Shown: in pieces, positions 28,911 to 64,000 of the stretch
Numbering within the stretch: position 1 is the stretch's first letter
Layout: every line of letters starts with the position of its first letter
Position numbers and translations under genes: made by a program
Notes under the pieces: generated by a model
The model's database searches: none
Seen by the model: only the letters and a program-made list of their open reading frames with translations
What the model was told of the DNA's origin: nothing
Assembly (NCBI GenBank): GCA_027078545.1
Contig: JALWXN010000004.1
Location: forward strand, 892,133-956,132
Length of the DNA: 64,000 nucleotides
Source: Nitrososphaeria archaeon
GTDB lineage: Archaea > Thermoproteota > Nitrososphaeria > Geothermarchaeales > JDFR-13
Direction of reading: 5' to 3'

Positions 28911-28919
28911 GTGGTGCAT

Positions 28920-43683: not shown

Positions 43684-43827
43684 TACTGCTCATGACAAAA
43701 TAAATCATCCATTAAAGACCTAACAAAAATGTATCTATGGAGACTATACCACAAACTACAAGTATATACAAAAAAGGCAGGGATAAGTACACAAACAAAT
43801 AAGTTATATGGGATTTAATTACATATC

Positions 43828-44349
43828 ATGAGAACCCTGATTATACTAGTGACAATAATATTAAGCCTACTAATCATAGGCAACATCTATGTACAGGGAA
43901 GGACAGCTCCAGAGTCCATCGACCCTAGATATGATGAGGACATGTATTATACGACGAGATACTTTCATTATACACCTTACTATATGTATGGAAAAGTCGT
44001 TGGATGGTACGTACCCAGGGATTCCGGCTACTTTAGGACTATACACGCTGGATCCGGTGCAGATCGATATAACAGAACACTGAGTTATTATAACCATATA
44101 GTTATGCTTCGTTTATGTGGAAGGGCCTTCGACTCCAATGGAAACATGATTGCCAATCCCTGCGTTACTGAAACCGCCACCCGCCAAGATCGGTATTTAT
44201 ATGAGGTGATTACCGTTGACTATGGAGCTGTAAGGGCGGTCAAGGCCCAGACCTATGTTTATGCCGTCTTCCACCATTATCATGATAGTACATTCGTAGT
44301 GTCATTTTCAGATAGCATTCCGTACAGCTACGTAGAGGTTAACTACTAG
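43828..44349 (+). CDS. small secreted Tyr-rich hypothetical protein
   Basis: Signal peptide MRTLIILVTIILSLLIIGNIYVQG; gene is markedly AT-richer than its surroundings. Confidence 0.5.
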   Translation: MRTLIILVTIILSLLIIGNIYVQGRTAPESIDPRYDEDMYYTTRYFHYTPYYMYGKVVGWYVPRDSGYFRTIHAGSGADRYNRTLSYYNHIVMLRLCGRAFDSNGNMIANPCVTETATRQDRYLYEVITVDYGAVRAVKAQTYVYAVFHHYHDSTFVVSFSDSIPYSYVEVNY

Positions 44350-44354
44350 GCGAG

Positions 44355-45218: not shown

Positions 45219-45283
45219 GGAGATCAAGCCCTTGTTCATGATACCCCTCGCCCTAATAGTAACGAGTATAGCCGGGCCCCCAC

Positions 45284-46970: not shown

Positions 46971-46971
46971 A

Positions 46972-48354: not shown

Positions 48355-48430
48355 GTAAACAGAATCCCAGAGAGCGTTATATGAATAGTGGCTATCGAGG
48401 AATATTTGTAAAAGAGGGGGAGAATAGTGG

Positions 48431-49144
48431 CTATGCACTGAGCCCGCTTAGGAACTCGCTGAGCGGGACATCCCTCACCTGGGAAGCCCAGCTGGGTACT
48501 GGAACGTCACCCGCAAAGGGTTTGAGGCTAACTCTCCCATCCTCCACCTTGAAGACTAGTAGGTCTGGGATGTATACCGGCTTATCCCTGAGGAGGCCGG
48601 CCATAAACGCCATATTGGATGGTATACCCTCAGGACCCATCCTCCCGTTTATCGCTATTATGACCGTCTCCCCAGGCCTGTATAGCACGTCCGTACTCTT
48701 CACAGCCATCTTCCCAGTATCGGGGTCGTAGCCATATGACCAGAGGAAGATGTAGAACCTATCCTCTGGGAACTCGCCCCTGAGAACCTCCTTCACCTCC
48801 AGGAGTACAAGTGTATTCAAACGCTTGACCTCCCGTGAGCCCAGCCTCTCAACAGTTATGTAGGTGCTCAGCTCCCTAACCTCAGCCAATACGAGGGCTA
48901 TACCCCTATCATTCAGAAACTCCTCAAGATCCTCTGGGAAGACGTCATGCCTAATCAGCGGCTCCGTAGTTACCACATACTCGCTTGGTAGGGGGCTCTC
49001 ACCCAAGGGTCTAGGCCCCTCTCCAGGGACATGTTGATAGACGGTGACGCTGGGAATATCCTGCTGGAAGAGGGATACGCCCGGGAATAATAGGATCAAC
49101 GTGACAGTCACTAGGACCACCGCTATAAGTGGGAGGCCCTTCAT
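48431..49144 (-). CDS. hypothetical membrane-anchored protein
   Basis: N-terminal TM/signal anchor MKGLPLIAVVLVTVTLILLF; no recognisable domain; sits between prpC and prpD. Confidence 0.45.
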   Translation of the reverse strand: MKGLPLIAVVLVTVTLILLFPGVSLFQQDIPSVTVYQHVPGEGPRPLGESPLPSEYVVTTEPLIRHDVFPEDLEEFLNDRGIALVLAEVRELSTYITVERLGSREVKRLNTLVLLEVKEVLRGEFPEDRFYIFLWSYGYDPDTGKMAVKSTDVLYRPGETVIIAINGRMGPEGIPSNMAFMAGLLRDKPVYIPDLLVFKVEDGRVSLKPFAGDVPVPSWASQVRDVPLSEFLSGLSA

Positions 49145-49230
49145 CTAATCCCCATCATGCACCTATTTCTAGCAAAGTATATTAGTTTAGAGATTTGTAC
49201 ACCGATAATTCTAGGGTAGATCGTTAATGG

Positions 49231-50466
49231 ATGGTTAAGCCATTCCCCAAAACAGTTGTCGACATAGCCTATACCCCGGAATATATCGCCGGCCTAGGGA
49301 TGAATATCTACATGGCGGAGGAGAGGGTGTCTATCTATAGGGGGTTGAAGAACGTCTATGTGGCTGAGTCGAGGATCTGCCTGATCGACCATGAGAGGGG
49401 GAAGATCTACTACTATGGATATGACCTGGATGAGCTGGCCCAGAAGAGTAGTTATGAGGAGGTCCTCTACCTACTCCTCCATGGAAGGCTACCCACAAGG
49501 AGGGAGTATCAGGAGTTCCTGGATAGGATAAGGGGGTCATTGCGGCTAGAGCCTGAGATCCTAGACGTTATGAGACGGATCCCAAGGGATATCGATATGA
49601 TGGAGGCCCTACGAACAGTGGTCTCATACATCGGTAACCTCCGGAGCCGGGATCCGGAGTATACGAGGGATGATGTAGTGGACTACACCGTCGACCTCGT
49701 GGCAAAGATGCCCAGCATAATAGGGGGGCTATACAGGATGTGGAGGGGTTTGGAGCCCCTCGAGCCCAGGGAGGATCTAAGCCTCGCCGCCAACCTCCTA
49801 TACCTCATAACCGGGAGGGAGTATGACGAGAGGGATGTTAGGGGCCTAGACATGAGCCTAATCCTCTATGCAGAACACGGCATGAACGCATCCACCTTCG
49901 CAGCCGTAGTGGTCGCATCAACAGGTAGCGACTACTACTCCTCCATAGTCGCGGGTATAGGGGCGCTGAGGGGCCCACTACATGGGTACGCCAACACCGG
50001 TGCATTGGAGCAGTTCCTAGAGATAGACGACCCCTCAAATGTGGAGAGGTGGTTCAAGGAGAATATCGAGAGTAGGAGGAGGCGGCTCATAGGGTTTGGC
50101 CACAGGCTATACAGGATACACGACCCGAGGGCGAAGCACTACAGGAGGTGGCTAGAGGAGAATAGGGAGAGGTTTGACGAGGAGACCCGGCGGGTATACG
50201 AAACAGCTATGAAGCTATACAACGTGGCTATGAACAGCTTCCTAGCGGAGAAGGGGATATACCCCAACTGCGACTACTGGAGCGCACTACTATACTACGC
50301 CCTGAAACTCCCAAAGGAGGTCTACACACCAATATTCGCAATGTCACGAATAGCCGGGTGGAGCAGCCACATAGCTGAGTACCGAGAGGACAACATACTG
50401 ATAAGGCCGAAGGCATACTACGTCGGCGAGAGAGACAAAAAGTACGTGCCCCTTGATGAGAGGTAG
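49231..50466 (+). CDS. prpC: citrate synthase family protein (likely 2-methylcitrate synthase)
   Basis: Citrate synthase motifs LHGYANTGA (catalytic His region), GFGHRLY, MSRIAGWSSH; divergent from the prpD-prpB unit. Confidence 0.85.
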   Translation: MVKPFPKTVVDIAYTPEYIAGLGMNIYMAEERVSIYRGLKNVYVAESRICLIDHERGKIYYYGYDLDELAQKSSYEEVLYLLLHGRLPTRREYQEFLDRIRGSLRLEPEILDVMRRIPRDIDMMEALRTVVSYIGNLRSRDPEYTRDDVVDYTVDLVAKMPSIIGGLYRMWRGLEPLEPREDLSLAANLLYLITGREYDERDVRGLDMSLILYAEHGMNASTFAAVVVASTGSDYYSSIVAGIGALRGPLHGYANTGALEQFLEIDDPSNVERWFKENIESRRRRLIGFGHRLYRIHDPRAKHYRRWLEENRERFDEETRRVYETAMKLYNVAMNSFLAEKGIYPNCDYWSALLYYALKLPKEVYTPIFAMSRIAGWSSHIAEYREDNILIRPKAYYVGERDKKYVPLDER

Positions 50467-50470
50467 ACAG

Positions 50471-51697
50471 TTATAGCTTAACCAAGACTATTTTGGAGGA
50501 GCCAATCTGGGCCTTATACAACACTACATATACTTCTCCATTATTCTCAACAAGGCCTAGCAGTCTATAGCTCTCACTGATGACCTCGTTGTCAAGCACC
50601 CCGCCACCAGGTATCTTCACCAGTGCCAGATAGGTATCGGCGAAACGCTGTCCAACCAGCAGATAATTATCACCTCCTATGTGTATCATGCTCGTTATCA
50701 GTACTGCCTCCTCAAAGGGACTTGGTAGGATTCCGACTGCCGGGGATAGGGCCTCGAGATCTATGAACTGGACCTCGCTACTTTGATCGGCATAGATCAC
50801 CGTGAAGAATATCTTTCCATCGGCGGCTCCCAGGGGAAGTACGTTTACGACGGGTGTCTCCCCACCCTGTATAGGGTATTCGAAGACTGTCTTGTTCTCA
50901 ACTATGTTATACACCATGACCTTGAAGCTGGACCCGTATCTAGTTACCGCGATAAAGTGGTCACCCACTACCCTGAACCTTATGGCACTATCAATCCTAG
51001 TTAGGAACTTCTTCCCCGAGTCATCCACAAGGTATATCTCGTCATAGGGATATAGGGTCACGACCCTAACCAGCAAATCATCACCAAAACGATATAGGCT
51101 TATAGGGGAGATACCGAAGTAGTAGGATCCTTCTACGACCAGCTCACCATCTACTAGACGTATAATACTAACATTACCATCGACCACAGCGATGATACGA
51201 TCCTCCACGACAAAGACTCTCGGGAAGGCACCGCCATCCAGTGTAATAGATGCCACTAACTCCCAGTCAATTCCATATACCCCGATCCATAGCTCGCTCT
51301 CCAAGTCGTTTGATATTAGGGCTGGTACCACCACCATATCGTCTAGGAACCGGGGCTCCAGAAATCCCAGTCTCGAATATTCGAGATGGGTGGGAAAACT
51401 CTCTAGAGTGCGGGTATCTACCTGACCATCACGTAGCTCGACGAGTACTGGATACCCCCCGGGTTCACCATCCAGACCCACGATATATAGTTTACCGTCA
51501 ACACTCCCAACGTCGCTTGGGAAATTAAGGGTTTTAACAACGATACTCTCTAGAGTTATCCCCGACACGGGAGGCCCAGTAGCTGGTATGCCAGGGAATA
51601 TTGGGAGCCAGCCCATCAACACTATCAGGATGACTATCAGACCCATGGCCACGAAGGCAGCGATTGGGAGCCTCCTATACCGATGATTTTCACCCAC
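50471..51697 (-). CDS. hypothetical membrane-anchored beta-rich protein
   Basis: N-terminal TM LPIAAFVAMGLIVILIVLMGWL, beta-strand-rich remainder, no motif recognised. Confidence 0.4.
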   Translation of the reverse strand: MGENHRYRRLPIAAFVAMGLIVILIVLMGWLPIFPGIPATGPPVSGITLESIVVKTLNFPSDVGSVDGKLYIVGLDGEPGGYPVLVELRDGQVDTRTLESFPTHLEYSRLGFLEPRFLDDMVVVPALISNDLESELWIGVYGIDWELVASITLDGGAFPRVFVVEDRIIAVVDGNVSIIRLVDGELVVEGSYYFGISPISLYRFGDDLLVRVVTLYPYDEIYLVDDSGKKFLTRIDSAIRFRVVGDHFIAVTRYGSSFKVMVYNIVENKTVFEYPIQGGETPVVNVLPLGAADGKIFFTVIYADQSSEVQFIDLEALSPAVGILPSPFEEAVLITSMIHIGGDNYLLVGQRFADTYLALVKIPGGGVLDNEVISESYRLLGLVENNGEVYVVLYKAQIGSSKIVLVKL

Positions 51698-51832
51698 GCC
51701 TATCTTTACCTCCTTACTGAAATTCTATCTCATTAAGGTGTGTAAATAATCTATGCTGATGTTATTGCTATACCGAATAGTGATGAACCATATTTAAGAT
51801 CGGCTGTGGATAGGCCAGCAACTCCTAATAAA

Positions 51833-53065
51833 CTATGTGCCTCTTGGCAGTCCTAGTACGTGTCTCGCTATGTAGTTCAGGGCGAGTTGCTGGGTTACCG
51901 GTGCTAGTCTGAGTAGGTTTATCTCTCTCCACCACCGCTCTACATCGAACTCCCTTGCATAGCCGTAGCCTCCGAAGGTCTGCATAGCCCAGTACACCGC
52001 CTCTATCCCCGCCTCTATAGCTACGTACTTCGCTATGTTGCTGTTCCTCCCAACCTCTGATAGGCCTGTAGACCTCGAGACGACCTCGTCAAAGCTCTTC
52101 GGATCCCTCGGCGGGGGCAGCCTGTCATAGGTTGCCGCGGCTCTATATGCTAGGAGGCGTGCCCCCTCGAGCATGGCGTAGGACCTGGCTAGTGGGTGCT
52201 GGACAGCCTGGTAGGAGCCTATTGGCCGGTCGAAGACGACCCTGTTCTTGGCATACTCGACAGCCCTTGACAAGGCTAGGTATCCGATGGCAACAGCACC
52301 TATTGAGAAGCCTATCCTCTCAGGGTTGAGTATGTCGAGGAGGACGTACCAACCAGCGTCGAGTGGGCCTAGGAGGTTCTCCTCGGGTATCCTTAGATCC
52401 TCTATGTAGACCTCGCAGGACTTGCTATAGTTTATCCCATGCTTAGGGATGGGGCTATACCTCACATTCTTATTCGGCATATCCACTATGAAGAGTGATA
52501 GGCCGAGGCTCCTCCTCCCAGCCTCCTCGGGGGTCTTAGTGCGGGCGACGAGTATGAAGGCCCGAGCCCTATCTATCCCGCTTATGAAGACCTTCCTCCC
52601 ATTAACGACGTACTCGTCACCCTCCTTCACGGCTGTCGTCTTTATCGATAATGTGTTTGACCCTACGTCCGGCTCGGTAAGGGCTAGGGCCCCCTCGATC
52701 CTCCCCTCCGCTATGCCTGGGAGATACTTCTCCTTCTGCTCCTTAGTACCGAACCTAGCTATGGGCAGTGCCAGGAATATCTCGGTAAGCATTATGTACC
52801 ATACACCGGCCATCCCCGCACCTCCCCTCACGAGGCCCTCTATAGCGACGGCCAGCTCCTCCAGTCCATAGCCGCTCCCCCCATACTCCTGGGGTATAAC
52901 GATACCCATGAACCCCTGCTCGGCTATCGCCCTGAAGAACTCCTCCGCAAACTCCTCCCTAAGATCCTTCTCCCTCCAGTACTCGGGTGGGAACTGGCTT
53001 GAGACCTCGTAGGCCGTCCTGTATATAAGCTCCTTATCCCCTGATAGGTCGGGAGGTATCTCCAT
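51833..53065 (-). CDS. acyl-CoA dehydrogenase
   Basis: ACAD N-, middle- and C-domains (ALTEPDVGSN, GRKVFISG, C-terminal helical domain with QTFGGYGY). Confidence 0.85.
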   Translation of the reverse strand: MEIPPDLSGDKELIYRTAYEVSSQFPPEYWREKDLREEFAEEFFRAIAEQGFMGIVIPQEYGGSGYGLEELAVAIEGLVRGGAGMAGVWYIMLTEIFLALPIARFGTKEQKEKYLPGIAEGRIEGALALTEPDVGSNTLSIKTTAVKEGDEYVVNGRKVFISGIDRARAFILVARTKTPEEAGRRSLGLSLFIVDMPNKNVRYSPIPKHGINYSKSCEVYIEDLRIPEENLLGPLDAGWYVLLDILNPERIGFSIGAVAIGYLALSRAVEYAKNRVVFDRPIGSYQAVQHPLARSYAMLEGARLLAYRAAATYDRLPPPRDPKSFDEVVSRSTGLSEVGRNSNIAKYVAIEAGIEAVYWAMQTFGGYGYAREFDVERWWREINLLRLAPVTQQLALNYIARHVLGLPRGT

Positions 53066-53098
53066 AGGAGACTATATCCAGCCCGGATGATTTAAGCC

Positions 53099-53461
53099 CT
53101 AGGGGGCGAGGGCGAGTAGGAGTAGCTGATAAGCCACAAACAATATGGTCAGGGGGATCAAGAGATACTTAAGACTCTCTAAGATACCCCTGTACTCCCT
53201 CATGGCTAGGAATGCTAGGTATGCCCCAACACCCAGGAGGAATATCATGACGAGTATATCCCCATCGACCCCAAAAGTATCCATGACCCACCTCCCGAAG
53301 AGGGTATATATGATGAATAGTATGGAGAAGTGGACGGCCAGCATAGCGCCCTTCCTAGCCCCACCAGCCTCTGAACCCCTATAGATGGTTATCCACCCCC
53401 TGGGAGCCCCAACAATATACATTGTACAATTTAGATGTGGATATAAGGCCCCAGCACCCAA
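53099..53461 (-). CDS. hypothetical small membrane protein
   Basis: Three predicted TM helices; no motif. Confidence 0.35.
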   Translation of the reverse strand: MGAGALYPHLNCTMYIVGAPRGWITIYRGSEAGGARKGAMLAVHFSILFIIYTLFGRWVMDTFGVDGDILVMIFLLGVGAYLAFLAMREYRGILESLKYLLIPLTILFVAYQLLLLALAP

Positions 53462-53600
53462 CTATATAGCCGTTGACCAAAGACCGTCTATGGATGGCTC
53501 ACCACACTCTGATTAGACGGTTTCCGGATAGAAAAGGGTAGCTTGATACTGGTGACTCTAAATATGTATGTGGTGGATAGGATGATCAGGGTGGGTCTCC

Positions 53601-53765
53601 ATGATGATCCAGATTAGTTTCGACGATGAGGCGAATGCACTATATGTAAAGTTGAGGGAGGATGCTGTTGAAGAGTCTAGGGAGGTCGCTCCAGGAGTCA
53701 TAATAGACTTTAATAGGGAGGGGAGGGTTGTCGGTATAGAGGTTCTGAGGGATATAAGTGGGTAA
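53601..53765 (+). CDS. small DUF2283-like protein (not in ORF track because under 60 aa)
   Basis: 54-aa ORF MMIQISFDDEANALYVKLREDAVEESREVAPGVIIDFNREGRVVGIEVLRDISG; pattern fits the short DUF2283 family. Confidence 0.45.
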   Translation: MMIQISFDDEANALYVKLREDAVEESREVAPGVIIDFNREGRVVGIEVLRDISG

Positions 53766-53795
53766 CGCCTCGGCTCCCGATGGCTGGTAAGCGCT

Positions 53796-54248
53796 CTATA
53801 CTGGGATTATCGCTACATAGTGATACCCCTCAGGCTCCCTCTGCCTAACCTCGAGCCTCACCTCAATATCCGGCTTCAGTGAGTCGAAATCACCCTCCAC
53901 TAGGCCTAAGACCTTGAAGCCGTCGATCTCGGCTACGCCCACTATGTAGTCTGGGTAGTGGCTATGTGTCTTCGGCTTAACATTTATCTCAGTATATGTC
54001 ACAAGCCTGCCCACCCCCTCTATCCTCCTCTCCTCCAGATCCCTAGAGCCGCAGCTCCTACATATGGGGCCGGGTGGGTACTGCCTATACCCACAGGCCC
54101 TACATATCTGTCCAAGTATTACGCCCTCCTCCAGCATCCTATAATACTTCTCCAGGCCGCCTAGTGAGCTCCTCAGGCTCAGTGGGAAGACCCTCTGATC
54201 CTCGAGGACCGGCATACCAGTCTTCTCATCCCTTGATATCCTACCCAT
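53796..54248 (-). CDS. DUF35 zinc-ribbon/OB-fold protein (thiolase-associated)
   Basis: CRACGYRQYPPGPICRSCGS rubredoxin-like zinc ribbon followed by OB-fold region; immediately downstream of the thiolase gene. Confidence 0.75.
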   Translation of the reverse strand: MGRISRDEKTGMPVLEDQRVFPLSLRSSLGGLEKYYRMLEEGVILGQICRACGYRQYPPGPICRSCGSRDLEERRIEGVGRLVTYTEINVKPKTHSHYPDYIVGVAEIDGFKVLGLVEGDFDSLKPDIEVRLEVRQREPEGYHYVAIIPV

Positions 54249-54254
54249 AACGCC

Positions 54255-55418
54255 TCACCTCGATAGGATCGATACATAGGCGTACTGCCCAACACCACCT
54301 ATGTTGTGGGTCAGGCCTACACCCCTCCTTATAACGGCCTGCCTACCCCTCTCCGCTTCACCACGTAGCTGCTTAACAATCTCCACGTACATCGCCACTC
54401 CGGTGGCCCCGACTGGGTGGCCCTTCGCCTTCAAGCCGCCGTCGAGGTTGACCTGCACCTCTCCCCCCACATATGTCTGCTCCTCCCTGATAAGCTCCAC
54501 GCCACGCCCCCTATCGGCGAAGCCTAGATCCTCATAGGCCAGGATCTCCGCAATGGTGAAGCAGTCATGGACAGTGGCCACGTCTATCTCCGCCCTGGGG
54601 TCCTCTATCCCCGCAGCCTTATATGCCTTCTCAGCCGCCCTCCTAGCAGACTCTATCGAGGTGTAGTCGGCCCTACCCGTCAGGCTGGCCGGCATCGATG
54701 AGTAGCCTATCCCCCTTATCCATATAGGGGTATCGACTCTTAGCTCCCTGATCGACTCCTCACTACTTATGACCACCGCTGCTGAGCCGTCGGTGATCGG
54801 GCTACAGTCATAGAGCTTTATCGGCCTAGCTATATACCTACTCCCCATACACTCCTCGAGGCTTATCTCCCTCTGGTACTGGGCCTTAGGATTCCTGGCA
54901 CCGTAGAAATGGTTCTTCACAGCCACTCGGCAGAAGTCCTCCTCCGTAGCCCCATACTCATGCATATACCTCGTCATGAATAGGGCGTAGTAGCCTGGGA
55001 ATGTTATGCCGTAGTCCCTAACCTCCCAGAAGTATGAGCCCAGCCTAGCTAGATACTCAACGGCACCCGGAGTCCCGAACTCATTCATCTTCTCCAGCCC
55101 AATGACGAGTACGTTCTTGGCGGCCCCACTCCTAACCATGTTGTAGGCGGTGTAGATCCCAGCACTACCCGAGGCGCAGGCCGCCTCTACCCTATGAACA
55201 GCTATTGGGTTAAGCCCTAGATGCTCGATATAGACCCCTGCAGGGCTGAACTCTGGTGTGAAGCCCGTGCTCGTGAAGACGATATAGTCTATATCCTCAG
55301 GCGATACGTAGCCCTCGTCCCAGACCTCCCTCACAGCCTCCTCGACAAGCTCGAATATGTTGACGTCAGTCCTCCTACCGAAGCGTGACATGCCTATCGA
55401 CGCTACTCCTACCCTCAT
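54255..55418 (-). CDS. thiolase (acetyl-CoA C-acyltransferase, SCP-x-like archaeal type)
   Basis: Active-site Cys context HRVEAACASGSAG, C-terminal GHPVGATG and catalytic His/Cys region; ATG 55418 (MRVGVASIG) preferred over 55430. Confidence 0.85.
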   Translation of the reverse strand: MRVGVASIGMSRFGRRTDVNIFELVEEAVREVWDEGYVSPEDIDYIVFTSTGFTPEFSPAGVYIEHLGLNPIAVHRVEAACASGSAGIYTAYNMVRSGAAKNVLVIGLEKMNEFGTPGAVEYLARLGSYFWEVRDYGITFPGYYALFMTRYMHEYGATEEDFCRVAVKNHFYGARNPKAQYQREISLEECMGSRYIARPIKLYDCSPITDGSAAVVISSEESIRELRVDTPIWIRGIGYSSMPASLTGRADYTSIESARRAAEKAYKAAGIEDPRAEIDVATVHDCFTIAEILAYEDLGFADRGRGVELIREEQTYVGGEVQVNLDGGLKAKGHPVGATGVAMYVEIVKQLRGEAERGRQAVIRRGVGLTHNIGGVGQYAYVSILSR

Positions 55419-55460
55419 CCCAATCCACATGATTGTATAGGGGGTTTACAATCCATAAGT

Positions 55461-55895
55461 CTATACTGTGAATATCCCTCCATACCCCAGGTACGCCAGG
55501 CCTAGTAGGAGGAGTATACCCAGTAGGAAGCCCAGCCTCCTACCCGTGAGGAGCATAAGCCCCGAGGGGATATGTATAGCCCCCAGCAGGGGGAGAACCA
55601 TGAACCATTCAACAGGCTCGAGGGGCATCAATAAGGTGTATATGATTGGGGTGGCCAGCAGTATTGATCCGAGGATCTTGGCTAGGGCTCCGTCTCCACG
55701 TATCGATATGCTCCCAACCAGGATTAGGATCGACGAGAATAGGTATATGGCTCCTCCTATCAGGGCGAGTACTAGGAAGAGGCCTATGGCTCCAAGCCCA
55801 CCCTTGAAGTCCGTCAGCTCCCTCAGGAGGTACCACCCAACTATAGATAGGAGCTCGCCGGAGAGTATTAGGAGGATCCCTAAGCGACGCGACAC
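55461..55895 (-). CDS. hypothetical membrane protein
   Basis: Four predicted TM helices, Gly/Leu-rich; no motif. Confidence 0.35.
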   Translation of the reverse strand: MSRRLGILLILSGELLSIVGWYLLRELTDFKGGLGAIGLFLVLALIGGAIYLFSSILILVGSISIRGDGALAKILGSILLATPIIYTLLMPLEPVEWFMVLPLLGAIHIPSGLMLLTGRRLGFLLGILLLLGLAYLGYGGIFTV

Positions 55896-55931
55896 ACCTA
55901 GTAAATGGGTTGGGAGGGATAAATTAATGGG

Positions 55932-57161
55932 CTATCCCCTGATATACTCCCTCCCTATATAGTCCCTGGCGATGATGATCTTCATGATGTTCTGGCCGCC
56001 CTCAGCCCCTACGAGGTAGCTGAGTATACCTAGCCATCCACGGTATACGTTGGACTCCTTCATATAGCTATAGGCACCCATCCACTTCATAACCTCCTCA
56101 TATATCCTGGCCGCAGCCTCAGGCCCCTTATACTTCGCCAGGGCGACTGGGATATTCAGGTCCTTAGGGTTTAGGGTAGGGTCGCCCTCACGGTATATCC
56201 TGTCAACCATCCAGGCAGCCCTGAGTGTGAAGAGCCTAGCCGCCTCCAGCTCGGCGTAGAGCTCTGAGAACCTCATGTATATCCCCTGGAATGAGGAGAG
56301 CCTCCGTCCATTGAAGAGCCTCCTATTACGTATCCACTCGACACCCTGGTCCAATGCCCACCTGGCACTCCCTACACAGGCGGCTGCCACGAGGATCCTG
56401 GCTATGTTGAAGCCCTCCATCAGGATGTAGAAGCCCTTCCCCTCCTCACCAACCCTATACCTATCCTCGATGGGGAAGCCCTCGACCTTGAAGCCCCCTG
56501 TTGAGAGGCCGCCCCTACCAATCTCCTCGAATATCGTGTAGTCTATCTCGCCCAGGAGCTCACCATCCCTCCTGGGTAGGAAGGCGAAGGTCGTTATATT
56601 CCTATGCCCATAGTCGAGGCTCCCAGTCTTGGATACGAGGAGCCAACCACCACCATCGAGCTGCTCCAACACCTCCCGGACACCGCTTATATAGATCTTC
56701 TCGCCACTCACCCTCCAAACACCATCACCCTTCTCGGCGAAGGTTTTTATACCAGCCACGTCGGAGCCTCCATGGGCCTCTGTAGAGGCTATCCCGAAGA
56801 AGTACTCGCCCCTCACTACCCTGGGCAGCACCTCGGCCTTCACATCGTCATTGGCATAGAGCTGTAGCAGGTATGGCCACCCATTGTTGAGGAGTACGTA
56901 TACAGCTATAGCTACGGCCGGGTCGTGGTATGCGAGCTCCTCTATCGCTAGGGCCGTCCTGAGATATGTCTCCCCCAGGCCTCCATACTCCTCGGAGATC
57001 GGCATACCTAGGAGGCCCTGCTCCCCCATCCTCCTGATGAGGTCCGTGGGTATCACGCCCGACTCGTCGATCTCCACCCACCTAGGCTCTATATACTCCT
57101 TGGCAAACTCGGCTACATTCCTCTTGAAGAGCTCATCCTCCCTGGATAGGCTGAAGTCCAT
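55932..57161 (-). CDS. acyl-CoA dehydrogenase
   Basis: ACAD-type N-terminus MDFSLSREDELF, STEAHGGSD, C-terminal helical domain; internal ATG 57161 used. Confidence 0.85.
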   Translation of the reverse strand: MDFSLSREDELFKRNVAEFAKEYIEPRWVEIDESGVIPTDLIRRMGEQGLLGMPISEEYGGLGETYLRTALAIEELAYHDPAVAIAVYVLLNNGWPYLLQLYANDDVKAEVLPRVVRGEYFFGIASTEAHGGSDVAGIKTFAEKGDGVWRVSGEKIYISGVREVLEQLDGGGWLLVSKTGSLDYGHRNITTFAFLPRRDGELLGEIDYTIFEEIGRGGLSTGGFKVEGFPIEDRYRVGEEGKGFYILMEGFNIARILVAAACVGSARWALDQGVEWIRNRRLFNGRRLSSFQGIYMRFSELYAELEAARLFTLRAAWMVDRIYREGDPTLNPKDLNIPVALAKYKGPEAAARIYEEVMKWMGAYSYMKESNVYRGWLGILSYLVGAEGGQNIMKIIIARDYIGREYIRG

Positions 57162-57210
57162 CTCAGGACACCTAGGTATTAGATCCCGGATCCCCGTATT
57201 TATTGCCGGC

Positions 57211-58101
57211 CTACTCCCCACGCCTCCTATATGGCATGCCCAGAGTCCTAGGCGCCCCGACCAGCCTCCTCAGCCTAGGTATGTGGAGCATGGTTAGGAA
57301 GATTATCGTCGCTATGTAGGGCGTGGTAGAGGCTAGGCGGGAGTCTATCGGGATGCCCAGAACCTGAACCAGTATACCCGCCTGTGTCAATAATCCGAAG
57401 AGGTGTGACACGGGCAGAGCAAGTAGGGGGTTCCACAGGGAGGTTATCACCAGTGCAAGGGCTATCCATCCCCTTCCACCGGATACGCCGAAGCTCCATA
57501 CAGGGATTAGGGAGAGGGTGAGCTTGGCACCCGCCAAGCCTACTATGAAGCCACCAATAACTACAATGTAGAGCCTAAGCCTATAGACGTCGTAGCCCAG
57601 GTAGTCCAGCCCCTCAGGATTATCCCCGAGACCCCTGATGACTAGGCCGGTCTTCGTCCTACTCAGTATGATGTATAGGGTCGGGGCTAGGAGATAGGCC
57701 AGTAGTGTCAGGATATCCAGCATCGGGAGGAGCTGTGGGAGCTTCTCAACCTCAATACCTGTGAACCCACTACCCAGTGCACTGCTTAGGCCCAGGCCTA
57801 TGAAGAGGACGGCCAGCCCACTCAGGACCTGGTCGCCCCGCAGGTATATGCTTAGGAAGCCATGGATAGATGCTAGGAGCGACCCTGCCAGGCCGGCTAG
57901 TAGGATGGCCAGGAGGTGGCTCCCAGTTGTGATGTAGACAGCGACCGCTGTGAGGGCGGATAGTGATATGATCCCCTCGACGCCCAGGTTTAGTATACCC
58001 GCCCTCTCCTTCAACAGCTCCCCAAGCGACGCGAGCAGTAGTATGGTGGAGGAGTCTATAACTAGCTGGACTATAGCCTCCTGGCCAGCCATCCTATCCA
58101 C
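57211..58101 (-). CDS. ABC transporter permease (BMP/nucleoside-type)
   Basis: Multi-TM protein with family-typical LNLGVEG segment; overlaps neighbouring permease. Confidence 0.75.
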   Translation of the reverse strand: MDRMAGQEAIVQLVIDSSTILLLASLGELLKERAGILNLGVEGIISLSALTAVAVYITTGSHLLAILLAGLAGSLLASIHGFLSIYLRGDQVLSGLAVLFIGLGLSSALGSGFTGIEVEKLPQLLPMLDILTLLAYLLAPTLYIILSRTKTGLVIRGLGDNPEGLDYLGYDVYRLRLYIVVIGGFIVGLAGAKLTLSLIPVWSFGVSGGRGWIALALVITSLWNPLLALPVSHLFGLLTQAGILVQVLGIPIDSRLASTTPYIATIIFLTMLHIPRLRRLVGAPRTLGMPYRRRGE

Positions 58102-59099
58102 CTCTCCAGGTACTGGGTAGAGACGAGCATAGCGAGGAGGAGGCCAGTCATCAGGTATGTAGCCTCCGTAGGGATGTCAGCCACTATGGCTAGGGTATAG
58201 GAGCCGTACAGGAAACCCGCAAAGAGTATAGACGCTATGGGGACTAGCAGGGGGTGGTTAGAGGCTAGTAGTGCTACTATAATAGCCGTGTATCCGAGGC
58301 CGGAGGAGAACCTCGGCATAAGCCTGTAGTAGCTCCCGAGGAAGTCGCCAGCACCCGCCAGGCCAGCCAGGAAGCCGCTTATGAAGAGGCCGCTCACTAT
58401 GATCATCCTCCTGTCATATCCAGCATACTCAGCCGCCTCACGGTTAAGGCCGTAGACCCTCAATTTGAAGCCATACCTCGTGTGGAAGAGGAGGTGGTAC
58501 AGCACAGGCGCCAGTAATAGCATGATAGCCAGGCCCCCCACGAACCCCCCTATCTCAGGAAGCCTATAGAGACTGGGTATCTCAGGCGTGACGGGGAACC
58601 CGGTCTGGGGATCCCTCCAGACACCGTAGACCACGTAGTAGAGGAGGTATAGAGCCACGTAGTTCAACATGAGGGTTGTGAGCACCTCGTTAACCCCTAG
58701 CCTCCACCTCAACACCCCTGGGAGAGCCGCGTATAGACCACCTATCAACGCACCCATTAGGAGGGGGACTACAGGCCCTCCACCGTGGAGGCTAAGGATA
58801 TATACTACATATCCAGCAGCCAGCCCTCCAAGGACATACTGCCCCTCGGCACCTATGTTCCAAAGACCCGCCCTGAAGACTATGGATAGGCCCAGCGATA
58901 TTATCCCTAGGGCCGCCGCAAGCCTCATCGTCTCCCTCAGACCGTAGGGGTCTAGGAAGGCGTTCCTAAACATCTTGAGGTAGGCCTCAACAGGGTCTCC
59001 ACCATATAGGATGATCACACCACTATAGGCGGCGACGGCTATAGATACTGCTAGTAGAGTGGCCAATCCCCTGTATAGCTGCATAGGGCTCAGCTCCAC
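58071..59099 (-). CDS. ABC transporter permease (BMP/nucleoside-type)
   Basis: Multi-TM protein with LWNIGAEGQ segment; overlaps ATPase and second permease. Confidence 0.75.
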   Translation of the reverse strand: MELSPMQLYRGLATLLAVSIAVAAYSGVIILYGGDPVEAYLKMFRNAFLDPYGLRETMRLAAALGIISLGLSIVFRAGLWNIGAEGQYVLGGLAAGYVVYILSLHGGGPVVPLLMGALIGGLYAALPGVLRWRLGVNEVLTTLMLNYVALYLLYYVVYGVWRDPQTGFPVTPEIPSLYRLPEIGGFVGGLAIMLLLAPVLYHLLFHTRYGFKLRVYGLNREAAEYAGYDRRMIIVSGLFISGFLAGLAGAGDFLGSYYRLMPRFSSGLGYTAIIVALLASNHPLLVPIASILFAGFLYGSYTLAIVADIPTEATYLMTGLLLAMLVSTQYLERWIGWLARRL

Positions 59100-60406
59100 C
59101 CGATCCCGGACATAAGCATCTTGAGACGGTCTACATCTGCCTTATCAGCGGGCACCGGCTCGGATACCCGGCCCCTATAGACTACAGAGACTAGACCCCC
59201 CAGCATAAGGGCCTCCTCAATATCCTCCGTGAAGTATATCACCTCACAGCCCCTCTCAACCGCCTCCCAAACCCTCCTATGTAGGAGGGCCATGCTCCTC
59301 ATGTCAAGGCCCCTGGTTGGATACATGAGGACACACCTATCCTGGGAGAGCTCCACCTCCCTACCTACTATGAACCTCTGCATATTCCCACCGGATAGAC
59401 GGTCTATAGGGGTATAGATATCCTTGGCGACCACCTCATAAGACCTCACGATCCTAAGTGTAAACTCCTCATAATCCACATCCCTCTCGAGAACCCTGAA
59501 CCTGACATTGTCCACCAGTGACATACCCGGTACCACAGCCCGGTAAGGATTGCCCGGCACATAGCCCGTGAAGCCCCTCGAACCCGATAGATACATGTTA
59601 GCCAGCTCCTCCTGACCATTACCCTCGATCCCCAGGTAGACCCTAAGCAGATCGGTCCCCCCACCACCATGCCTGTCCCCAAGGAACTCCTCCCCCCTGA
59701 ACATCAGTCTATAGAGCCTATCCACGTCATCAACACCACCTGTATAGGCTACCTGCCCATCCCTAAGGACGGTGACCCTGTCACATATCTCGACGACCTC
59801 GTCCAGCCTATGGGATATAAATATGAAGGAGAATCCAGCACCCCTGAGAGCCCTTAGAAGCCGGGCCAGGTCCTCCACCTCGACGGGCGACATGACGGAG
59901 GTGGGCTCATCAAGTATAACTATCCTGGCGCCGGTGGATAGAGCCCTCAGTACCTCTATCTTCTTAACCATACCCCTCTCAAGCCTCTCTACAGGCGTCT
60001 CCAGGTCTACCTCCAGACCCAGCTCATCAACTATCCTGTGGACCCTCTCCACAGCCCCTTTTCCATTGGATAGGCGTATATTCTCGATCCCTGTGAGGCT
60101 GGGTATCAATACGTTGTGCTGTGGAACCATGAATATCCCGTGTCTCCGGGCGTCCTGGGGACTCGATATCCGTGTCTTGACACCCCTTATAGATATCTCG
60201 CCGGCCGAGGGCCTCACCACGCCGTAGAGTACATGGACGAAGCTCGTCTTACCAGCCCCATTCTCACCGACCAGGCCGTGTATCTCCCCCTCGTAGAGGG
60301 TTAGGGATACCCCCTTATTCGCAACCGTCCCGTCGCTATAGACCACCCAGATATTCCTAGCCTCTAGGAGTGGGCTACTCCTCCCCTGGGAGGTCACCCA
60401 CCACAC
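59090..60406 (-). CDS. ABC transporter ATP-binding protein (two nucleotide-binding regions)
   Basis: Walker A GENGAGKTS, Walker B VILDEPTS, second ABC region with LSGGNMQR signature. Confidence 0.85.
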   Translation of the reverse strand: MWWVTSQGRSSPLLEARNIWVVYSDGTVANKGVSLTLYEGEIHGLVGENGAGKTSFVHVLYGVVRPSAGEISIRGVKTRISSPQDARRHGIFMVPQHNVLIPSLTGIENIRLSNGKGAVERVHRIVDELGLEVDLETPVERLERGMVKKIEVLRALSTGARIVILDEPTSVMSPVEVEDLARLLRALRGAGFSFIFISHRLDEVVEICDRVTVLRDGQVAYTGGVDDVDRLYRLMFRGEEFLGDRHGGGGTDLLRVYLGIEGNGQEELANMYLSGSRGFTGYVPGNPYRAVVPGMSLVDNVRFRVLERDVDYEEFTLRIVRSYEVVAKDIYTPIDRLSGGNMQRFIVGREVELSQDRCVLMYPTRGLDMRSMALLHRRVWEAVERGCEVIYFTEDIEEALMLGGLVSVVYRGRVSEPVPADKADVDRLKMLMSGIGWS

Positions 60407-61514
60407 CCTCTAGGAACCACTTCATACTGAGCAGCTCAGACTTGGTCAGCTGCCTACCAGGCTCCGCCCTAACCCTTCCACGCCTATCGACTAGGGGGCC
60501 TGTGAAGGGTTCATAGCTATTCTCAGCCATCAACTCCCTAATCCTCATTATCTCCTCCCTTACATCCTCGGGGACCACGTCCGATATAGGGGAGATCTCT
60601 ACAGCCCCCTCGTAGAAGCCCCACCAATAGTCCTTACTCTCCCAGACACCTGTGTATGCCCTTATAAGTACATCCTCATAGATCACACCCCAGTTAGCCA
60701 GGTGACCAGTCAGGTGGGCGTTGGGGCCATACTTAGACATGTCGCTATAGTGGCTGAAGCTATAGACACCATTCTCCTCAGCCACCTGGAGAACGGTGGG
60801 CGTATCCTCGGTGAAGGCTAGGACGTCGCAGCCAATGCCTATCAACTGCTCAGCAGCTGCACGGGCGGCCTCTGGGTTGAACCATGCGTTTATCCATATC
60901 ACATGGGTCTCAACATCGGGGTTCACCCTCCTAGCCCCGAGGTGGAAGGCGTTGATATGCCTTATGACCTCAGGGATCGGGTGGGCAGCCACATATCCAA
61001 GCTTGTTAGACTCGGTAACGGCACCTGCAGCCATACCGTTGAGGTAGAAGGGCTGATACATACGTATGAAGTATGTACCCACATTCTCCCTCCTCTTGAA
61101 GCCGGAGCAGTGCATGAATATCCTGTCGGGATACCGCCTACCAGCCTCTATAGTGTCGTCCATGTAGCCGAAGCTGGTCGTGAATATGACCTCATACCCC
61201 TCATTGACTAGCTGGGTAATCACGGGTAGAGACTCATTCTCAGGCACAGACTCCACATACTCCGTCTCGAGGAAGTCCAGCCTCTCAGCCACATATCGCC
61301 TACCAAGGTCATGTGCATATGTCCAGCCGAAGTCCTCGACATTGGAGATGTATATCCAGGCGGCCCTAAGAACATCCCTCTCTCCGCCAGGGGTGGCAGC
61401 CTCCTGAGCATCCCCACCAGCGGATAGCCTACCCGCCAGGAAGCCACCGGCTAGGCCTGCAACACCAGCCCCAAACACCTTAACGAACTCACGCCTATCG
61501 CTCATGTTTGACAC
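60375..61514 (-). CDS. BMP-family ABC transporter substrate-binding protein with twin-arginine signal
   Basis: N-terminal Tat-like SDRREFVKVFGAGVAGLAGG; periplasmic binding fold of the basic-membrane-protein (PnrA-like) family. Confidence 0.75.
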   Translation of the reverse strand: MSNMSDRREFVKVFGAGVAGLAGGFLAGRLSAGGDAQEAATPGGERDVLRAAWIYISNVEDFGWTYAHDLGRRYVAERLDFLETEYVESVPENESLPVITQLVNEGYEVIFTTSFGYMDDTIEAGRRYPDRIFMHCSGFKRRENVGTYFIRMYQPFYLNGMAAGAVTESNKLGYVAAHPIPEVIRHINAFHLGARRVNPDVETHVIWINAWFNPEAARAAAEQLIGIGCDVLAFTEDTPTVLQVAEENGVYSFSHYSDMSKYGPNAHLTGHLANWGVIYEDVLIRAYTGVWESKDYWWGFYEGAVEISPISDVVPEDVREEIMRIRELMAENSYEPFTGPLVDRRGRVRAEPGRQLTKSELLSMKWFLEGVVGDLPGEE

Positions 61515-61620
61515 CTTGACAAAAATGTTTAAAACATGGGACTTGAATAAAAATAAATTTTAAGTGTTTATGTAAAGTATGGCATATAAGGGGTCAAGGG
61601 TTTAACGATATGCTTAAATA

Positions 61621-62403
61621 ATGTGGGGTGGATTATTTAGAGAGACCAGCGAATTTAAAGGGTTGTTTAAAATGAAGATGAAGTATGGATACATTGTCAA
61701 GACGATGTATTTCAGGGAGCTCCTGAGGCAGGCCAAGAAGCTCTATAGCTGGGAGCAGATAAGGGAGAGGACTGGGATAGCCCCCTCCACACTCAGCAGG
61801 TATCTACATGGCAGGATAATCCCGAGTCCCGAGAGGCTCGACAGCCTGATAACAATCCTCGAGGAGATGGTGGATATTAGGGAGCTTATACTAAACTACC
61901 TCGCCACGGATAGGTATGGATACCTCAACAACCAGAGGATCATAAGCGACATAGGACTCCTCAAGTTCATAGCCATCAAGACCAGCGTGAAGTATGGAGG
62001 CACACCCGACGTCGTCCTGAGCCCCGCCACGGACGGGGTTCCATACGCAACCCTAGTGGCGGAGTATCTAGGGACACCACTGGTTATAGCTAAGGATAGG
62101 AAGGAGGTGGGTGTCCAGAGGCATATCGAGGCATCAGTGATAAACGAGGATGGGAGTGTGAGGACGCTCTACATAGCCCGTGGCCTCATAAACAAGAACT
62201 ATAGGGTCCTGATAGTTGATGACGTGATAAGGACTGGGGAGACCCATAGGGCGTTGCTACAACTGGTGAAGAAGGCTGGTGCAATACCCATAGGGATCCA
62301 CGTCATAGTAGCGGTTGGCGAGAGGTGGAGGAGCCTGGTGGAGGAGCATGGCGTGGAGGTGGATGCTATCGTCCAGATAGGTTCGCGGCTCGGACAAGGC
62401 TGA
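61621..62403 (+). CDS. HTH-domain / phosphoribosyltransferase-domain protein (putative PRPP-sensing transcriptional regulator)
   Basis: N-terminal HTH-like region (IAPSTLSRYLHG) and C-terminal type I PRTase fold with PRPP-binding VLIVDDVIRTGET; alternative ATG at 61672. Confidence 0.6.
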   Translation: MWGGLFRETSEFKGLFKMKMKYGYIVKTMYFRELLRQAKKLYSWEQIRERTGIAPSTLSRYLHGRIIPSPERLDSLITILEEMVDIRELILNYLATDRYGYLNNQRIISDIGLLKFIAIKTSVKYGGTPDVVLSPATDGVPYATLVAEYLGTPLVIAKDRKEVGVQRHIEASVINEDGSVRTLYIARGLINKNYRVLIVDDVIRTGETHRALLQLVKKAGAIPIGIHVIVAVGERWRSLVEEHGVEVDAIVQIGSRLGQG

Positions 62404-62585
62404 ATACGTCATCCCCCGGGGTAGGTCAGCTCCGGGTAGTGTCGTCATAGCCACTCATCAATATTTACAGATCATCCTGATAAGGCTTCTACTCATTTCT
62501 GATACTGAATATAGATACGCCGGGTCGATACATGCATAGCTTGGTCCACCGTTAAATCCCTTCTACGCCCTACTATCTCTATGCG

Positions 62586-63194
62586 ATGAGGAGGAGTAAG
62601 TATATCGCCCTCACCTCAGTCTTCGGTGGACTCGCAATCCTAACATCTATATCCGGCCTATCCAGGGTATTGGTCTACCCACTAGTCCCATACCTGAAGT
62701 TCGATCCGGCCGAGATCTTCATAGTAATAGCATACCTGATAGGGGGTCTACACGTAGGGCTCACCACATCGCTTATACACCTGGCCGGACTGATGCTCCT
62801 GGCTGACGAGCCTATAGGCCCGGTTATGAAGTTCCTAGCCGTCGCCTCGATGCTCCTAGGGCTGGAGATAAGCGGTAGGCTCGGCCTGGACAGGCTGAAG
62901 AGATACGTATTGACGACGGGGCTCAGGGTCTCCGTGATGACCCTTGTCAACGCTGTGGTCCTATACTTCCTATTCCCAGGCTTCCTAGAGTTCTTCAATG
63001 GATACGTCTCCAGCCTTGGGCTCGAGGGGGCGCTCGCCGCGCTATTCCTAGCTTTGATACTCACAGGGGTCTATAACGCCATCCATACAGTCTTCACCCT
63101 CCTACCCTCCGAGGCTGTGGTTGCCAAGATACTCCCCATCATATCTCCTGTATCACCCTTACGACATCGAGGCGACGAGCCTTTAGATAGTTGA
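62586..63194 (+). CDS. membrane protein (possibly ECF-transporter S-component-like)
   Basis: About 200 aa with 5-6 predicted TM helices; assignment tentative. Confidence 0.4.
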   Translation: MRRSKYIALTSVFGGLAILTSISGLSRVLVYPLVPYLKFDPAEIFIVIAYLIGGLHVGLTTSLIHLAGLMLLADEPIGPVMKFLAVASMLLGLEISGRLGLDRLKRYVLTTGLRVSVMTLVNAVVLYFLFPGFLEFFNGYVSSLGLEGALAALFLALILTGVYNAIHTVFTLLPSEAVVAKILPIISPVSPLRHRGDEPLDS

Positions 63195-64000
63195 CCAGGT
63201 AGACAACACCAAGAACCAGTAGGAATACGATGAGGATGTTCTCGCTGAATAGAGAGGCTATAGGCCTCAAAGGCTCGACGTAGCCAATAGCCGTGGCTCC
63301 ACTCCTAGAGATAAGGTCTGCGAGGAGCATCCCAACGCCTAGGGCCAGGGGCGCGGCTATCGGGAGTATAACCACCAACTGTAGGACGCTGAGCCCCGCT
63401 ATCAAGCCGTTCCCCATACCCAGGCTCTTCATTATGGCGAGCTCCTTGTTACGGGCCTCCGAGTCCACGGAGTAGATCGATGATAGGCTTATAAGGCTGG
63501 CTATTAGGAGGGCAAATACTATGCCCGTGTTGAGCCCCAGTATGAAGTTCATCATGAACTGTATATTATCGATGATCTCCTCCTTCGTGACGTAGTCAAC
63601 GGAGACCAGTGGGTTCTCCTCAATGGCCTCCTTTACCTGCTCAGAGACCTCCTCAGGGTCTCCGGAGACGTCGAGATAGGCGACTAGGGAGCGTCTACCA
63701 AGCTCATCCTCAGGTGTATCAGTCATGAGTATGTACTGCTCCTGGGTCACGAGGAGGTAGTACCCATTATTAAGCCTCGAGATGGAGATACCCACCACCT
63801 TCAGCCTATATATGTCCCCATCAACCGCCGCCTCAATATAGTCACCCACATCTACACCCTTGAGTAGGGCCAGGCTCCTAGATATGACAGCCTCACCTAG
63901 GGCACTAGGGTATCTACCCCTCTCCAGTGGGAAGGCCACACCGGGGTCTCCTGCTAAGCCAGTCACGATCTGTGAGACCTCTACCTGGCCGAAGACGTCT
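63139..64000 (-). CDS. FtsX-like ABC transporter permease (C-terminal part; 5' end probably beyond window)
   Basis: Extracytoplasmic domain followed by three C-terminal TM helices (MacB/FtsX architecture); reading frame stays open to the window edge upstream of the first Met at 63966. Confidence 0.5.
   Translation of the reverse strand, partial: DVFGQVEVSQIVTGLAGDPGVAFPLERGRYPSALGEAVISRSLALLKGVDVGDYIEAAVDGDIYRLKVVGISISRLNNGYYLLVTQEQYILMTDTPEDELGRRSLVAYLDVSGDPEEVSEQVKEAIEENPLVSVDYVTKEEIIDNIQFMMNFILGLNTGIVFALLIASLISLSSIYSVDSEARNKELAIMKSLGMGNGLIAGLSVLQLVVILPIAAPLALGVGMLLADLISRSGATAIGYVEPLRPIASLFSENILIVFLLVLGVVYLVNYLKARRLDVVRVIQEI

Follow-up and report, generated by a model that had tools for sequence, protein, structure and literature searches.

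A candidate XRE-phosphoribosyltransferase regulator divergent from a predicted purine-base importer operon in a Nitrososphaeria archaeon

A gene for a helix-turn-helix (HTH) domain fused to a type I phosphoribosyltransferase (PRT) domain lies divergent to a four-gene ATP-binding cassette (ABC) transporter operon in a Nitrososphaeria archaeon (GenBank assembly GCA_027078545.1; contig JALWXN010000004.1, positions 892,133 to 956,132, forward strand). This stretch of 64,000 nucleotides is called the window below, and coordinates are counted from its first base. We describe the binding pocket of the transporter, the domains and family of the HTH-PRT protein, and the conservation of the pair among relatives, and we put the HTH-PRT protein forward as a candidate regulator of purine-base uptake.

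Layout of the locus and substrate of the importer

All five open reading frames (ORFs) of a first-pass annotation, made from the sequence alone, were recovered at its coordinates in the ORF map of the window. Three of them, as first called, spanned 60375-61514 (-), 59090-60406 (-), and 61621-62403 (+), and their starts were refined. The HTH-PRT gene was taken to start at M18 of its ORF (base 61672), in agreement with P0001 (a 243-amino-acid [aa] database protein 100% identical to that of the window), the gene calls of locus L084, and the NCBIfam match. The L084 contig encodes products 99 to 100% identical to those of the window (tblastn), and its gene calls (binding protein, 376 aa; ATPase, 435 aa) placed the starts of these two genes at 61505 and 60397. 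With the starts of regulator and binding protein refined in this way, the intergenic region is 61506-61671, which corrects the earlier bounds of 61515-61620.

The plus-strand gene encodes the HTH-PRT protein (61672-62403; 243 aa; Pfam HTH_3 and Pribosyltran, NCBIfam NF006328, AlphaFold2 model), a candidate ligand-responsive regulator. On the minus strand are a BMP-family substrate-binding protein (60375-61505; 376 aa; purine-base subgroup of AtzT and 3S99), an ABC ATPase (59090-60397; 435 aa), and two permeases of the BPD_transp_2 family (58071-59099, 133 bits; 57211-58101, 100 bits), both syntenic in relatives. The ORFs and the Pfam matches (Bmp, ABC_tran, and two BPD_transp_2) thus bear out the four-gene BMP-family operon of the first-pass annotation.

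The binding protein matched Bmp (PF02608) at 173 bits (cutoff, 24.1; E, 9e-51). The twin-arginine signal read previously as DRREFVK is present: S-D-R-R-E-F-V-K (61479-61502, -) is followed by the hydrophobic stretch VFGAGVAGLAGGFLAG, an arrangement of the S/T-R-R-x-F-L-K type that predicts export by the twin-arginine translocation (Tat) pathway, and every orthologue examined carried a motif of the (S/D/N)RR(E/D)(F/A)(L/V/I)K type. Its best solved relatives were AtzT (6pi5; E, 3e-85; 290 bits; ~40% identity over the full domain) and a Brucella protein (3s99; E, 3e-74; 253 bits; 36% identity), while the nucleoside-binding TmpC/PnrA type scored 25.9 bits. AtzT also carries a TAT signal; it binds guanine (Kd, 0.11 μM, co-purified with the protein) and adenine (2.5 μM), leaves GTP unbound, and satisfies each guanine heteroatom from its pocket, and adenine was modelled in the pocket of 3s99 (PMC6834077).

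The AtzT contact residues Tyr45, Ser97, Phe98, Thr139, Glu165, Asn169, Trp194, Asn218, and Asn220 were mapped by alignment and correspond, in order, to W-S-F-F-E-H-W-T-D in the window. The protein therefore retains the aromatic sandwich (45 and 194) and the equivalents of Ser97, Phe98, and Glu165, purine-base contacts in AtzT, and it has W at 45 and D at 220 as does the adenine-containing 3s99. This pattern was kept in 10 out of 10 sequences of the archaeal clade, apart from the fourth residue, which is F or Y, and the third, where L008 has Y instead of F, although the overall identity of these proteins was only 43 to 85%. In contrast to the solved proteins, the clade has Thr for Asn218 and His for Asn169, and the window protein is archaeal, lacks a lipobox cysteine, and has a ligand predicted by homology. 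Given the relatedness to AtzT and 3S99 and a pocket invariant across the clade, the substrate is most likely a free purine base (adenine- or guanine-like) rather than a nucleoside, and the importer would extend the purine-base-binding BMP subgroup to archaea.

Nucleoside uptake, as in the PnrA, BmpD, NupD, or BmpA-NupABC systems, was the substrate given by the first-pass annotation. The Pfam family bears the name PnrA-like, the studied archaeal BMP system (Thermococcus kodakarensis TK0657-0660) is a nucleoside transporter (PMC12628685), and no nucleosides are among the ligands in the AtzT binding table (PMC6834077). We nonetheless consider this reading unlikely in view of the bit scores to AtzT and 3S99 (290 and 253, against 26 to TmpC), the retained stacking pair and Ser-Phe-Glu contacts, and an AtzT pocket that satisfies all guanine heteroatoms and leaves GTP unbound. 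A vitamin B6 or sugar transporter was rejected, with the NF0479xx and sugar-ATPase models far under their cutoffs.

The ATPase had been described as carrying two nucleotide-binding domains (NBDs). This description is only partly right. NCBIfam matched the protein in two stretches; Pfam detected a single ABC_tran (residues 31 to 170), and a single consensus ATP site is predicted from the motifs, beside a degenerate, truncated one. NBD1 has canonical Walker A and B motifs and a degenerate signature (LERGMVKK), and NBD2 keeps the signature LSGGNMQR, with a Walker A motif that lacks the lysine (GNGQ) and a Walker B motif without the acidic pair (VLMYPTRGLD). In the alignment, the protein had 435 aa versus 490 to 525 aa in relatives, and its subclade carries deletions. 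It is 55 to 90 residues shorter than the orthologues of L002, L004, L007, and L008, the deletions are common to L001, whose aligned protein has 448 aa, and gene calls of the same short length (435 aa) were seen in L081, L083, and L084.

Domains and family of the HTH-PRT protein

Both halves of the fusion proposed by the first-pass annotation scored above the Pfam cutoffs. The N-terminal domain (residues 18 to 63 of 243; 61723-61860, +) is an XRE/Cro-C1-type HTH, matched by HTH_3 (PF01381; 30.8 bits; cutoff, 23), HTH_31, and HTH_19, and the PurR N-terminal winged-helix domain (PF09182) was not detected in the protein by Pfam. A recognition-helix motif, LSRYxxG..P, was invariant across the family. 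Modelled alone, the N-terminal 78 residues (predicted local distance difference test [pLDDT], 91.8) had nearly exclusively XRE-type proteins among their top 50 Foldseek neighbors (SinR, P2 C, DdrO, ClgR, and P22 c2), with probabilities of 0.9 to 0.99 and template modeling (TM) scores of ~0.5 to 0.6 for those named; E values were only 0.1 to 0.7 because the domain is short. The domain thus has both the profile score and the five-helix fold of the XRE family; a search of its sequence alone against the PDB gave no informative match.

The type I PRT-like domain spans residues 98 to 220 by Pfam (Pribosyltran, 57 bits; cutoff, 26.3; E, 1.8e-15; 61963-62331, +), with a hood from about residue 80. An AlphaFold2 model from a 23-sequence alignment (pLDDT, 88.7; predicted TM score, 0.85) superposed over its C-terminal ~180 residues on the PRT domains of XPRT, APRT, and PurR. 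The top Foldseek matches were XPRT (6w1i/1y0b), PurR (7rmw), and APRT (2dy0), with XPRT first (target-normalized TM, 0.82), and the XPRT and APRT enzymes gave target-normalized TM scores of 0.82 to 0.86, against 0.49 with PurR (7rmw_A). When the family profile was searched against the PDB, Bacillus subtilis PurR was the best match (85 bits; E, 5e-23), followed by XPRT (50 bits) and APRT (46 bits).

The phosphoribosyl pyrophosphate (PRPP)/ribose-5-phosphate motif read by the first-pass annotation, VLIVDDVIRTGET, is present at residues 179 to 191 (62206-62244, +) and aligns with PurR D203-T211. L180, V182, D184, G189, and T191 were invariant in the family, with I181, D183, and V185 nearly so, and the ribose-5-phosphate motif D-D-x-x-x-T-G-x-T is intact. 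Effector-pocket residues of PurR in contact with ppGpp or PRPP (Y102, D203, F205, K207, and T211), among them the purine-stacking Tyr102, were taken from PMC8789054. In the family, Y102 is Y or F, D203 and D204 are kept, F205 is V, K207 is R, and T211 is kept. The pyrophosphate-loop position holds an invariant Asp; the corresponding residue is Arg67 for APRT, a Lys for PurR, and a Ser for XPRT. In human numbering, this Asp replaces the catalytic Arg67 of APRT, and the Glu104 and Tyr105 positions are unconserved; the comparison was with human APRT, and an R. marinus APRT fragment agrees at the Arg position. The hood motif is YLNNQ (FLNHQ in XPRT), and the loop is EASVIN (TASVYS in XPRT).

By profile, the protein belongs to NF006328/PRK08558 ("adenine phosphoribosyltransferase"), with 194.3 bits against a cutoff of 184 (residues 33 to 253; profile positions 15 to 237 of 238). 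It fell below the cutoffs of APRT (TIGR01090, 32.9 versus 185.85 bits), XPRT (NF006671, 50.7 versus 177), archaeal HPRT (NF040646, 49 versus 200), NF009211 of the archaeal APRT/HPRT families (38 versus 188), and NF002620 (43.8 versus 115), and neither score nor catalytic residues place it in the canonical APRT group (TIGR01090, NF002636, and related models). Membership of the PurR type or GfcR type, suggested previously, was ruled out by the profile scores: PurR (TIGR01743) reached 48.4 bits (cutoff, 258.7), in a match confined to the PRT part, and GfcR (NF045507) 17.7 bits (cutoff, 300), and the DNA-binding domain is XRE/HTH_3 and not the PurR winged helix. At least 407 loci with relatives of the protein were found in a scan with one genome per species, in Geothermarchaeota, Bathyarchaeia, Thermococci, Asgard lineages, Brockarchaeota, and others. 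Among open-access papers, we found no experimental characterization of PRK08558 or of archaeal HTH-PRT proteins, no basis for the enzyme name, and no archaeal purine-responsive transcription factor. Annotation pipelines propagate the enzyme name for this widespread family.

A PRT fold acting as the sensor of a transcription factor is already known from PurR and GfcR. B. subtilis PurR (1O57/1P4A/7RMW) shares with the window protein an N-terminal DNA-binding domain, a type I PRT domain (in PurR the effector pocket), and the conserved Tyr102, Asp203/204, Lys207 (Arg here), and Thr211, and is its best PDB profile match. It differs in its winged helix (PF09182), its pyrophosphate-loop Lys (here the invariant Asp), and its Phe205 (here Val), and the window protein is archaeal; the latter seems to have arisen by a separate fusion. 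Purine-base transporters are also part of the PurR regulon. Haloferax volcanii GfcR is likewise an archaeal transcription factor of HTH and PRT domains, but it has a PRT domain of the PyrE/orotate-PRT kind and sugar catabolism under its control; it keeps the 5'-phosphate loop and two Asp residues, has lost the pyrophosphate contacts, and senses phosphorylated metabolites without catalysis (PMC10838023). B. subtilis XPRT (1Y0B/2FXV/6W1I), similar in hood and loop, has no DNA-binding domain and a Ser in the pyrophosphate loop rather than Asp; its gene, too, adjoins that of a purine-base transporter, although the transporter of xpt-pbuX is a permease and not an ABC system. The combination seen here (XRE HTH, XPRT/PurR-like PRT domain, invariant Asp, archaeal host, and pairing with a predicted purine-base BMP importer) was found in no characterized system and makes the protein a distinct variant.

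Conservation of the pair and its shared intergenic region

Neighborhoods were compared in the 80 best genome loci, in closer relatives from other assemblies (L081 to L084), and in 9 metagenome loci. The divergent BMP operon was present in all 8 of the closest relatives among the 80 (43 to 59% identity), in L081 to L084, and in 9 out of 9 metagenome loci. The pair thus occurs in all members found of the subclade, ~13 lineages with no exception, at identities of 43 to 74% for the regulator and 43 to 85% for the binding protein. In a neighbor-joining tree, the nine linked regulators included formed one monophyletic group, and the linked clade has signatures in the hood, G(Y/F)(L/I)(N/D)NQ, and the loop, SP(A/S)(T/A)DG. 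Downstream of the regulator, genes differ by lineage (ECF-S-like protein, oxidoreductase, epimerase, aminotransferase, or membrane protein), so the conserved unit is regulator plus transporter. The functional link that the first-pass annotation had drawn between the two transcription units gains support from this pattern.

Downstream of the regulator in the window, a 202-aa membrane protein (62586-63194, +) weakly resembles the S components of ECF transporters (PF12822; 21 bits, under the cutoff). Such a gene directly follows the regulator here and in L001, L081, L083, L084, L086, and L087, lies ~1.9 kb downstream in L002 and L088, and was not found in the examined flanks of L003 to L008; it could be part of the module of regulator and importer or independent of it. 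No other purine genes were seen among the larger ORFs scanned in the window.

The divergent region (61506-61671; 166 bp) is AT-rich and contains several TTTAAA boxes and one ATGTAAA word. ATGTAAA occurred in 7 out of 8 orthologous intergenic regions (0 out of 300 shuffles matched this), and ATGTAAA and TATGTAAA were over-represented (7/8 and 6/8 regions; family-wise p, ~0.02 for 8-mers). A comparable word found upstream of more distant members of the family was rejected as an operator, being the B recognition element (BRE)/TATA of Thermococcales promoters. Three relatives, L003, L006, and L007, carry 16- to 18-bp palindromes, TWACA-N6-TGTWA (TTWACA-N6-TGTWAA), between regulator and binding protein (L006, 2193-2208 and 2276-2291; L007, 7892-7907 and 7975-7990; L003, 1456-1471). 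In 956 kb of locus sequence, the pattern had only 8 exact matches, and these sites account for 5 of them. L006 and L007 each carry two, of which one lies ~20 bp before the start of the regulator gene, and the two loci differ from each other by symmetric changes in both arms. The palindromes are likely operators in those relatives, and the operator evidence is suggestive there and absent in the window, where TWACA-N6-TGTWA did not occur in the intergenic region even with one mismatch. In T. kodakarensis, an unidentified repressor has been postulated at ATTTAC-N5-GTGAAA upstream of RuBisCO (PMC12628685), and any resemblance of that site to the TTTACA/TGTAAA half-site is speculative.

Rfam detected no riboswitch or other element in 57000-63300 except a sub-threshold C/D-box match, and none that competes as regulator at the locus; the leader fold gave a z score of -1.35. 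The sub-threshold match (62380-62416, -; sR60 sRNA; 26.6 bits, gathering threshold 50; E, 0.004) overlaps the 3' end of the regulator gene, with RUGAUGA-like and CUGA-like boxes nearby on the minus strand.

Proposed regulation, alternatives, and other features of the window

On balance, and with modest confidence, we lean to the view that the HTH-PRT protein is a PurR-like, ligand-responsive regulator that binds the shared promoter and tunes a purine-base importer. The four minus-strand genes would form a Tat-exported BMP-family ABC importer of free purine bases, and the XPRT/PurR-like PRT domain would act as the ligand sensor behind the XRE HTH. By binding within the shared 166-bp region, the protein would set transcription of the importer, and probably its own, according to purine or phosphoribosyl status. 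Two candidate effectors are equally plausible: PRPP, to which B. subtilis PurR responds, and a purine nucleoside monophosphate. The domain architecture, the family placement, the gene linkage throughout the subclade, and the conserved binding pockets are observations, while DNA binding, the regulatory target, the identity of the effector, and a loss of catalysis are inferred. PRPP sensing as such, favored by the first-pass annotation, is weakened by the invariant Asp of the pyrophosphate loop (Arg in APRT, Lys in PurR, Ser in XPRT): a kept 5'-phosphate site with lost pyrophosphate contacts resembles GfcR and makes PRPP only one candidate. Both characterized HTH-PRT fusions known to us, PurR and GfcR, are regulators (PMC10838023; PMC8789054). 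At the locus itself, the protein contains a DNA-binding domain and lacks the catalytic residues of APRT, and the transporter is of a non-sugar type.

Several observations weigh against regulation of the importer by this protein. In the remaining 72 of the 80 genome loci (42% identity or less), there was no divergent BMP operon and the surroundings were of the housekeeping kind; among these, L020 has BMP-type ATPase and permease genes ~2.4 kb upstream. Within the family, the active-site region is highly conserved together with its flexible loop, as would be expected of an enzyme no less than of a sensor. The Arg and Glu-Tyr residues of APRT are missing from XPRT too, although that enzyme is active, so their absence is no proof of inactivity. 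NCBIfam names the NF006328 family an enzyme, and a PRT gene beside a purine transporter is a classic salvage-enzyme arrangement, as in B. subtilis xpt-pbuX. No operator could be demonstrated in 61506-61671 by palindrome search or by alignment of relatives. The best palindrome there, ATGTTT-A-AAACAT (61525-61537), is a candidate operator only and was rejected as evidence: 48% of dinucleotide shuffles gave arms of at least 6, so that the search proposed with the first-pass annotation yielded nothing above chance, and the palindrome was unconserved in L081, L083, and L001. The blocks conserved with the closest relatives were mainly TATA-like boxes of the TTTAAA type and Shine-Dalgarno-like sequences, and the ATGTAAA word, too, could be a form of the TATA element.

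Much of this evidence bears on the possibility that the protein is a trigger enzyme, comparable to PyrR or BirA: an active XPRT-like salvage PRT that converts the imported base while its HTH also regulates the locus. XPRT is the top structural match, YLNNQ in the hood resembles FLNHQ, the flexible loop and the PRPP motif are strongly conserved, and the enzyme name and the placement mirroring xpt-pbuX would be accounted for. We nevertheless judge a trigger enzyme improbable, since the invariant Asp of this family stands at a position taken by Arg or Ser in the known enzymes and by Lys in PurR, a regulator; the family profile is closer to noncatalytic PurR than to XPRT or APRT, and neither characterized HTH-PRT fusion is catalytic.

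Less probable still is a plain adenine or purine PRT as annotated, with an N-terminal domain for oligomerization or another role outside DNA binding and a purely metabolic linkage to the importer. The equivalog name and score of NF006328 agree with it, as does the lack of an operator in the window, and a widespread family amid housekeeping genes (Bathyarchaeia, Thermococci, and Asgard lineages) would be more usual for enzymes than for specific regulators. An HTH_3 match above cutoff, an invariant recognition helix, XRE structural neighbors, and the missing APRT catalytic residues all speak against a plain enzyme, and separate archaeal APRT/HPRT families exist under whose cutoffs the protein falls far (NF009211, 38 of 188 bits; NF040646, 49 of 200). 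That the protein is a regulator with targets elsewhere (e.g., purine or nucleoside salvage genes) and an importer adjacent through inherited synteny, as might be suggested by the many family members without an adjoining transporter, the isomerase-like neighbor of 28 Bathyarchaeia loci, and the window without an operator, is very unlikely, because the pair persists in ~13 lineages in which the downstream genes have changed, divergent orientation and shared promoter region are kept throughout, and the palindromes of L003, L006, and L007 fall inside that region.

A broader form of the regulatory proposal takes the whole NF006328/PRK08558 family as the archaeal counterpart of PurR: an independent fusion of an XRE HTH and an XPRT-like sensor that would control the importer in the Geothermarchaeota-like subclade, with an effector other than PRPP (e.g., a purine nucleotide) because of the invariant Asp in the pyrophosphate loop. 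We regard this as a tentative possibility, a little short of even. If the family is regulatory, the control of purine salvage and uptake would become open to study in several uncultured archaeal lineages as well as in the Thermococcales, which are tractable. A systematic annotation error would then be put right, and the family would be the third independent case of a PRT enzyme fold turned transcription-factor sensor, after PurR and GfcR.

Elsewhere in the family, the 28 Bathyarchaeia loci always had an IF-2B-family gene just downstream of the HTH-PRT homologue, in either orientation. Its product is MtnA/ribose-1,5-bisphosphate isomerase-like (PF01008; E, 1.5e-95; e.g., L063, 8785-9819, and L011, 8750-9763), and a link to nucleoside or pentose-bisphosphate salvage is possible. 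Other distant family members sit among tRNA-synthetase, Kae1/Bud32, and Ham1 genes.

Next to the importer, 39382-57221 is a propionate and fatty-acid catabolism neighborhood with an acyl-CoA synthetase and two acyl-CoA dehydrogenases. It includes PrpD (46972-48438), a PEP-mutase/ICL-like methylisocitrate lyase (46065-46970), a citrate or 2-methylcitrate synthase (49231-50466), and an overlapping thiolase-like and DUF35/OB-fold pair (53796-55430). The acyl-CoA dehydrogenase that adjoins the permease is syntenic also in L001 and L083.

An 897-aa ORF (26217-28910, +) combines GatB_N (residues 9 to 287), a helical tail, an OB anticodon domain, and a class II tRNA-synt_2 core (589 to 891) in a GatB-AspRS(ND)-type fusion (Asp/Asn-type synthetase), directly followed by a GatA-like amidase (28911-30338, +). 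Fused homologues occurred in at least 30 protein clusters (36 to 93% identity; mostly 860 to 956 aa), one of them named aspartate--tRNA(Asn) ligase in a Baldrarchaeia metagenome-assembled genome, and versions of ~1110 to 1170 aa carry a bacterial-type GAD domain. A keyword literature search found no paper reporting a GatB-synthetase fusion, which could be a "transamidosome" in one polypeptide.

Two adjoining minus-strand genes encode a 1,413-aa protein with CarboxypepD_reg/Ig-like repeats (13575-17816) and a 565-aa trypsin-like protease with an Ig-like domain (17823-19520). Both end in a C-terminal zinc ribbon, an unusual combination for proteins that are presumably extracellular.

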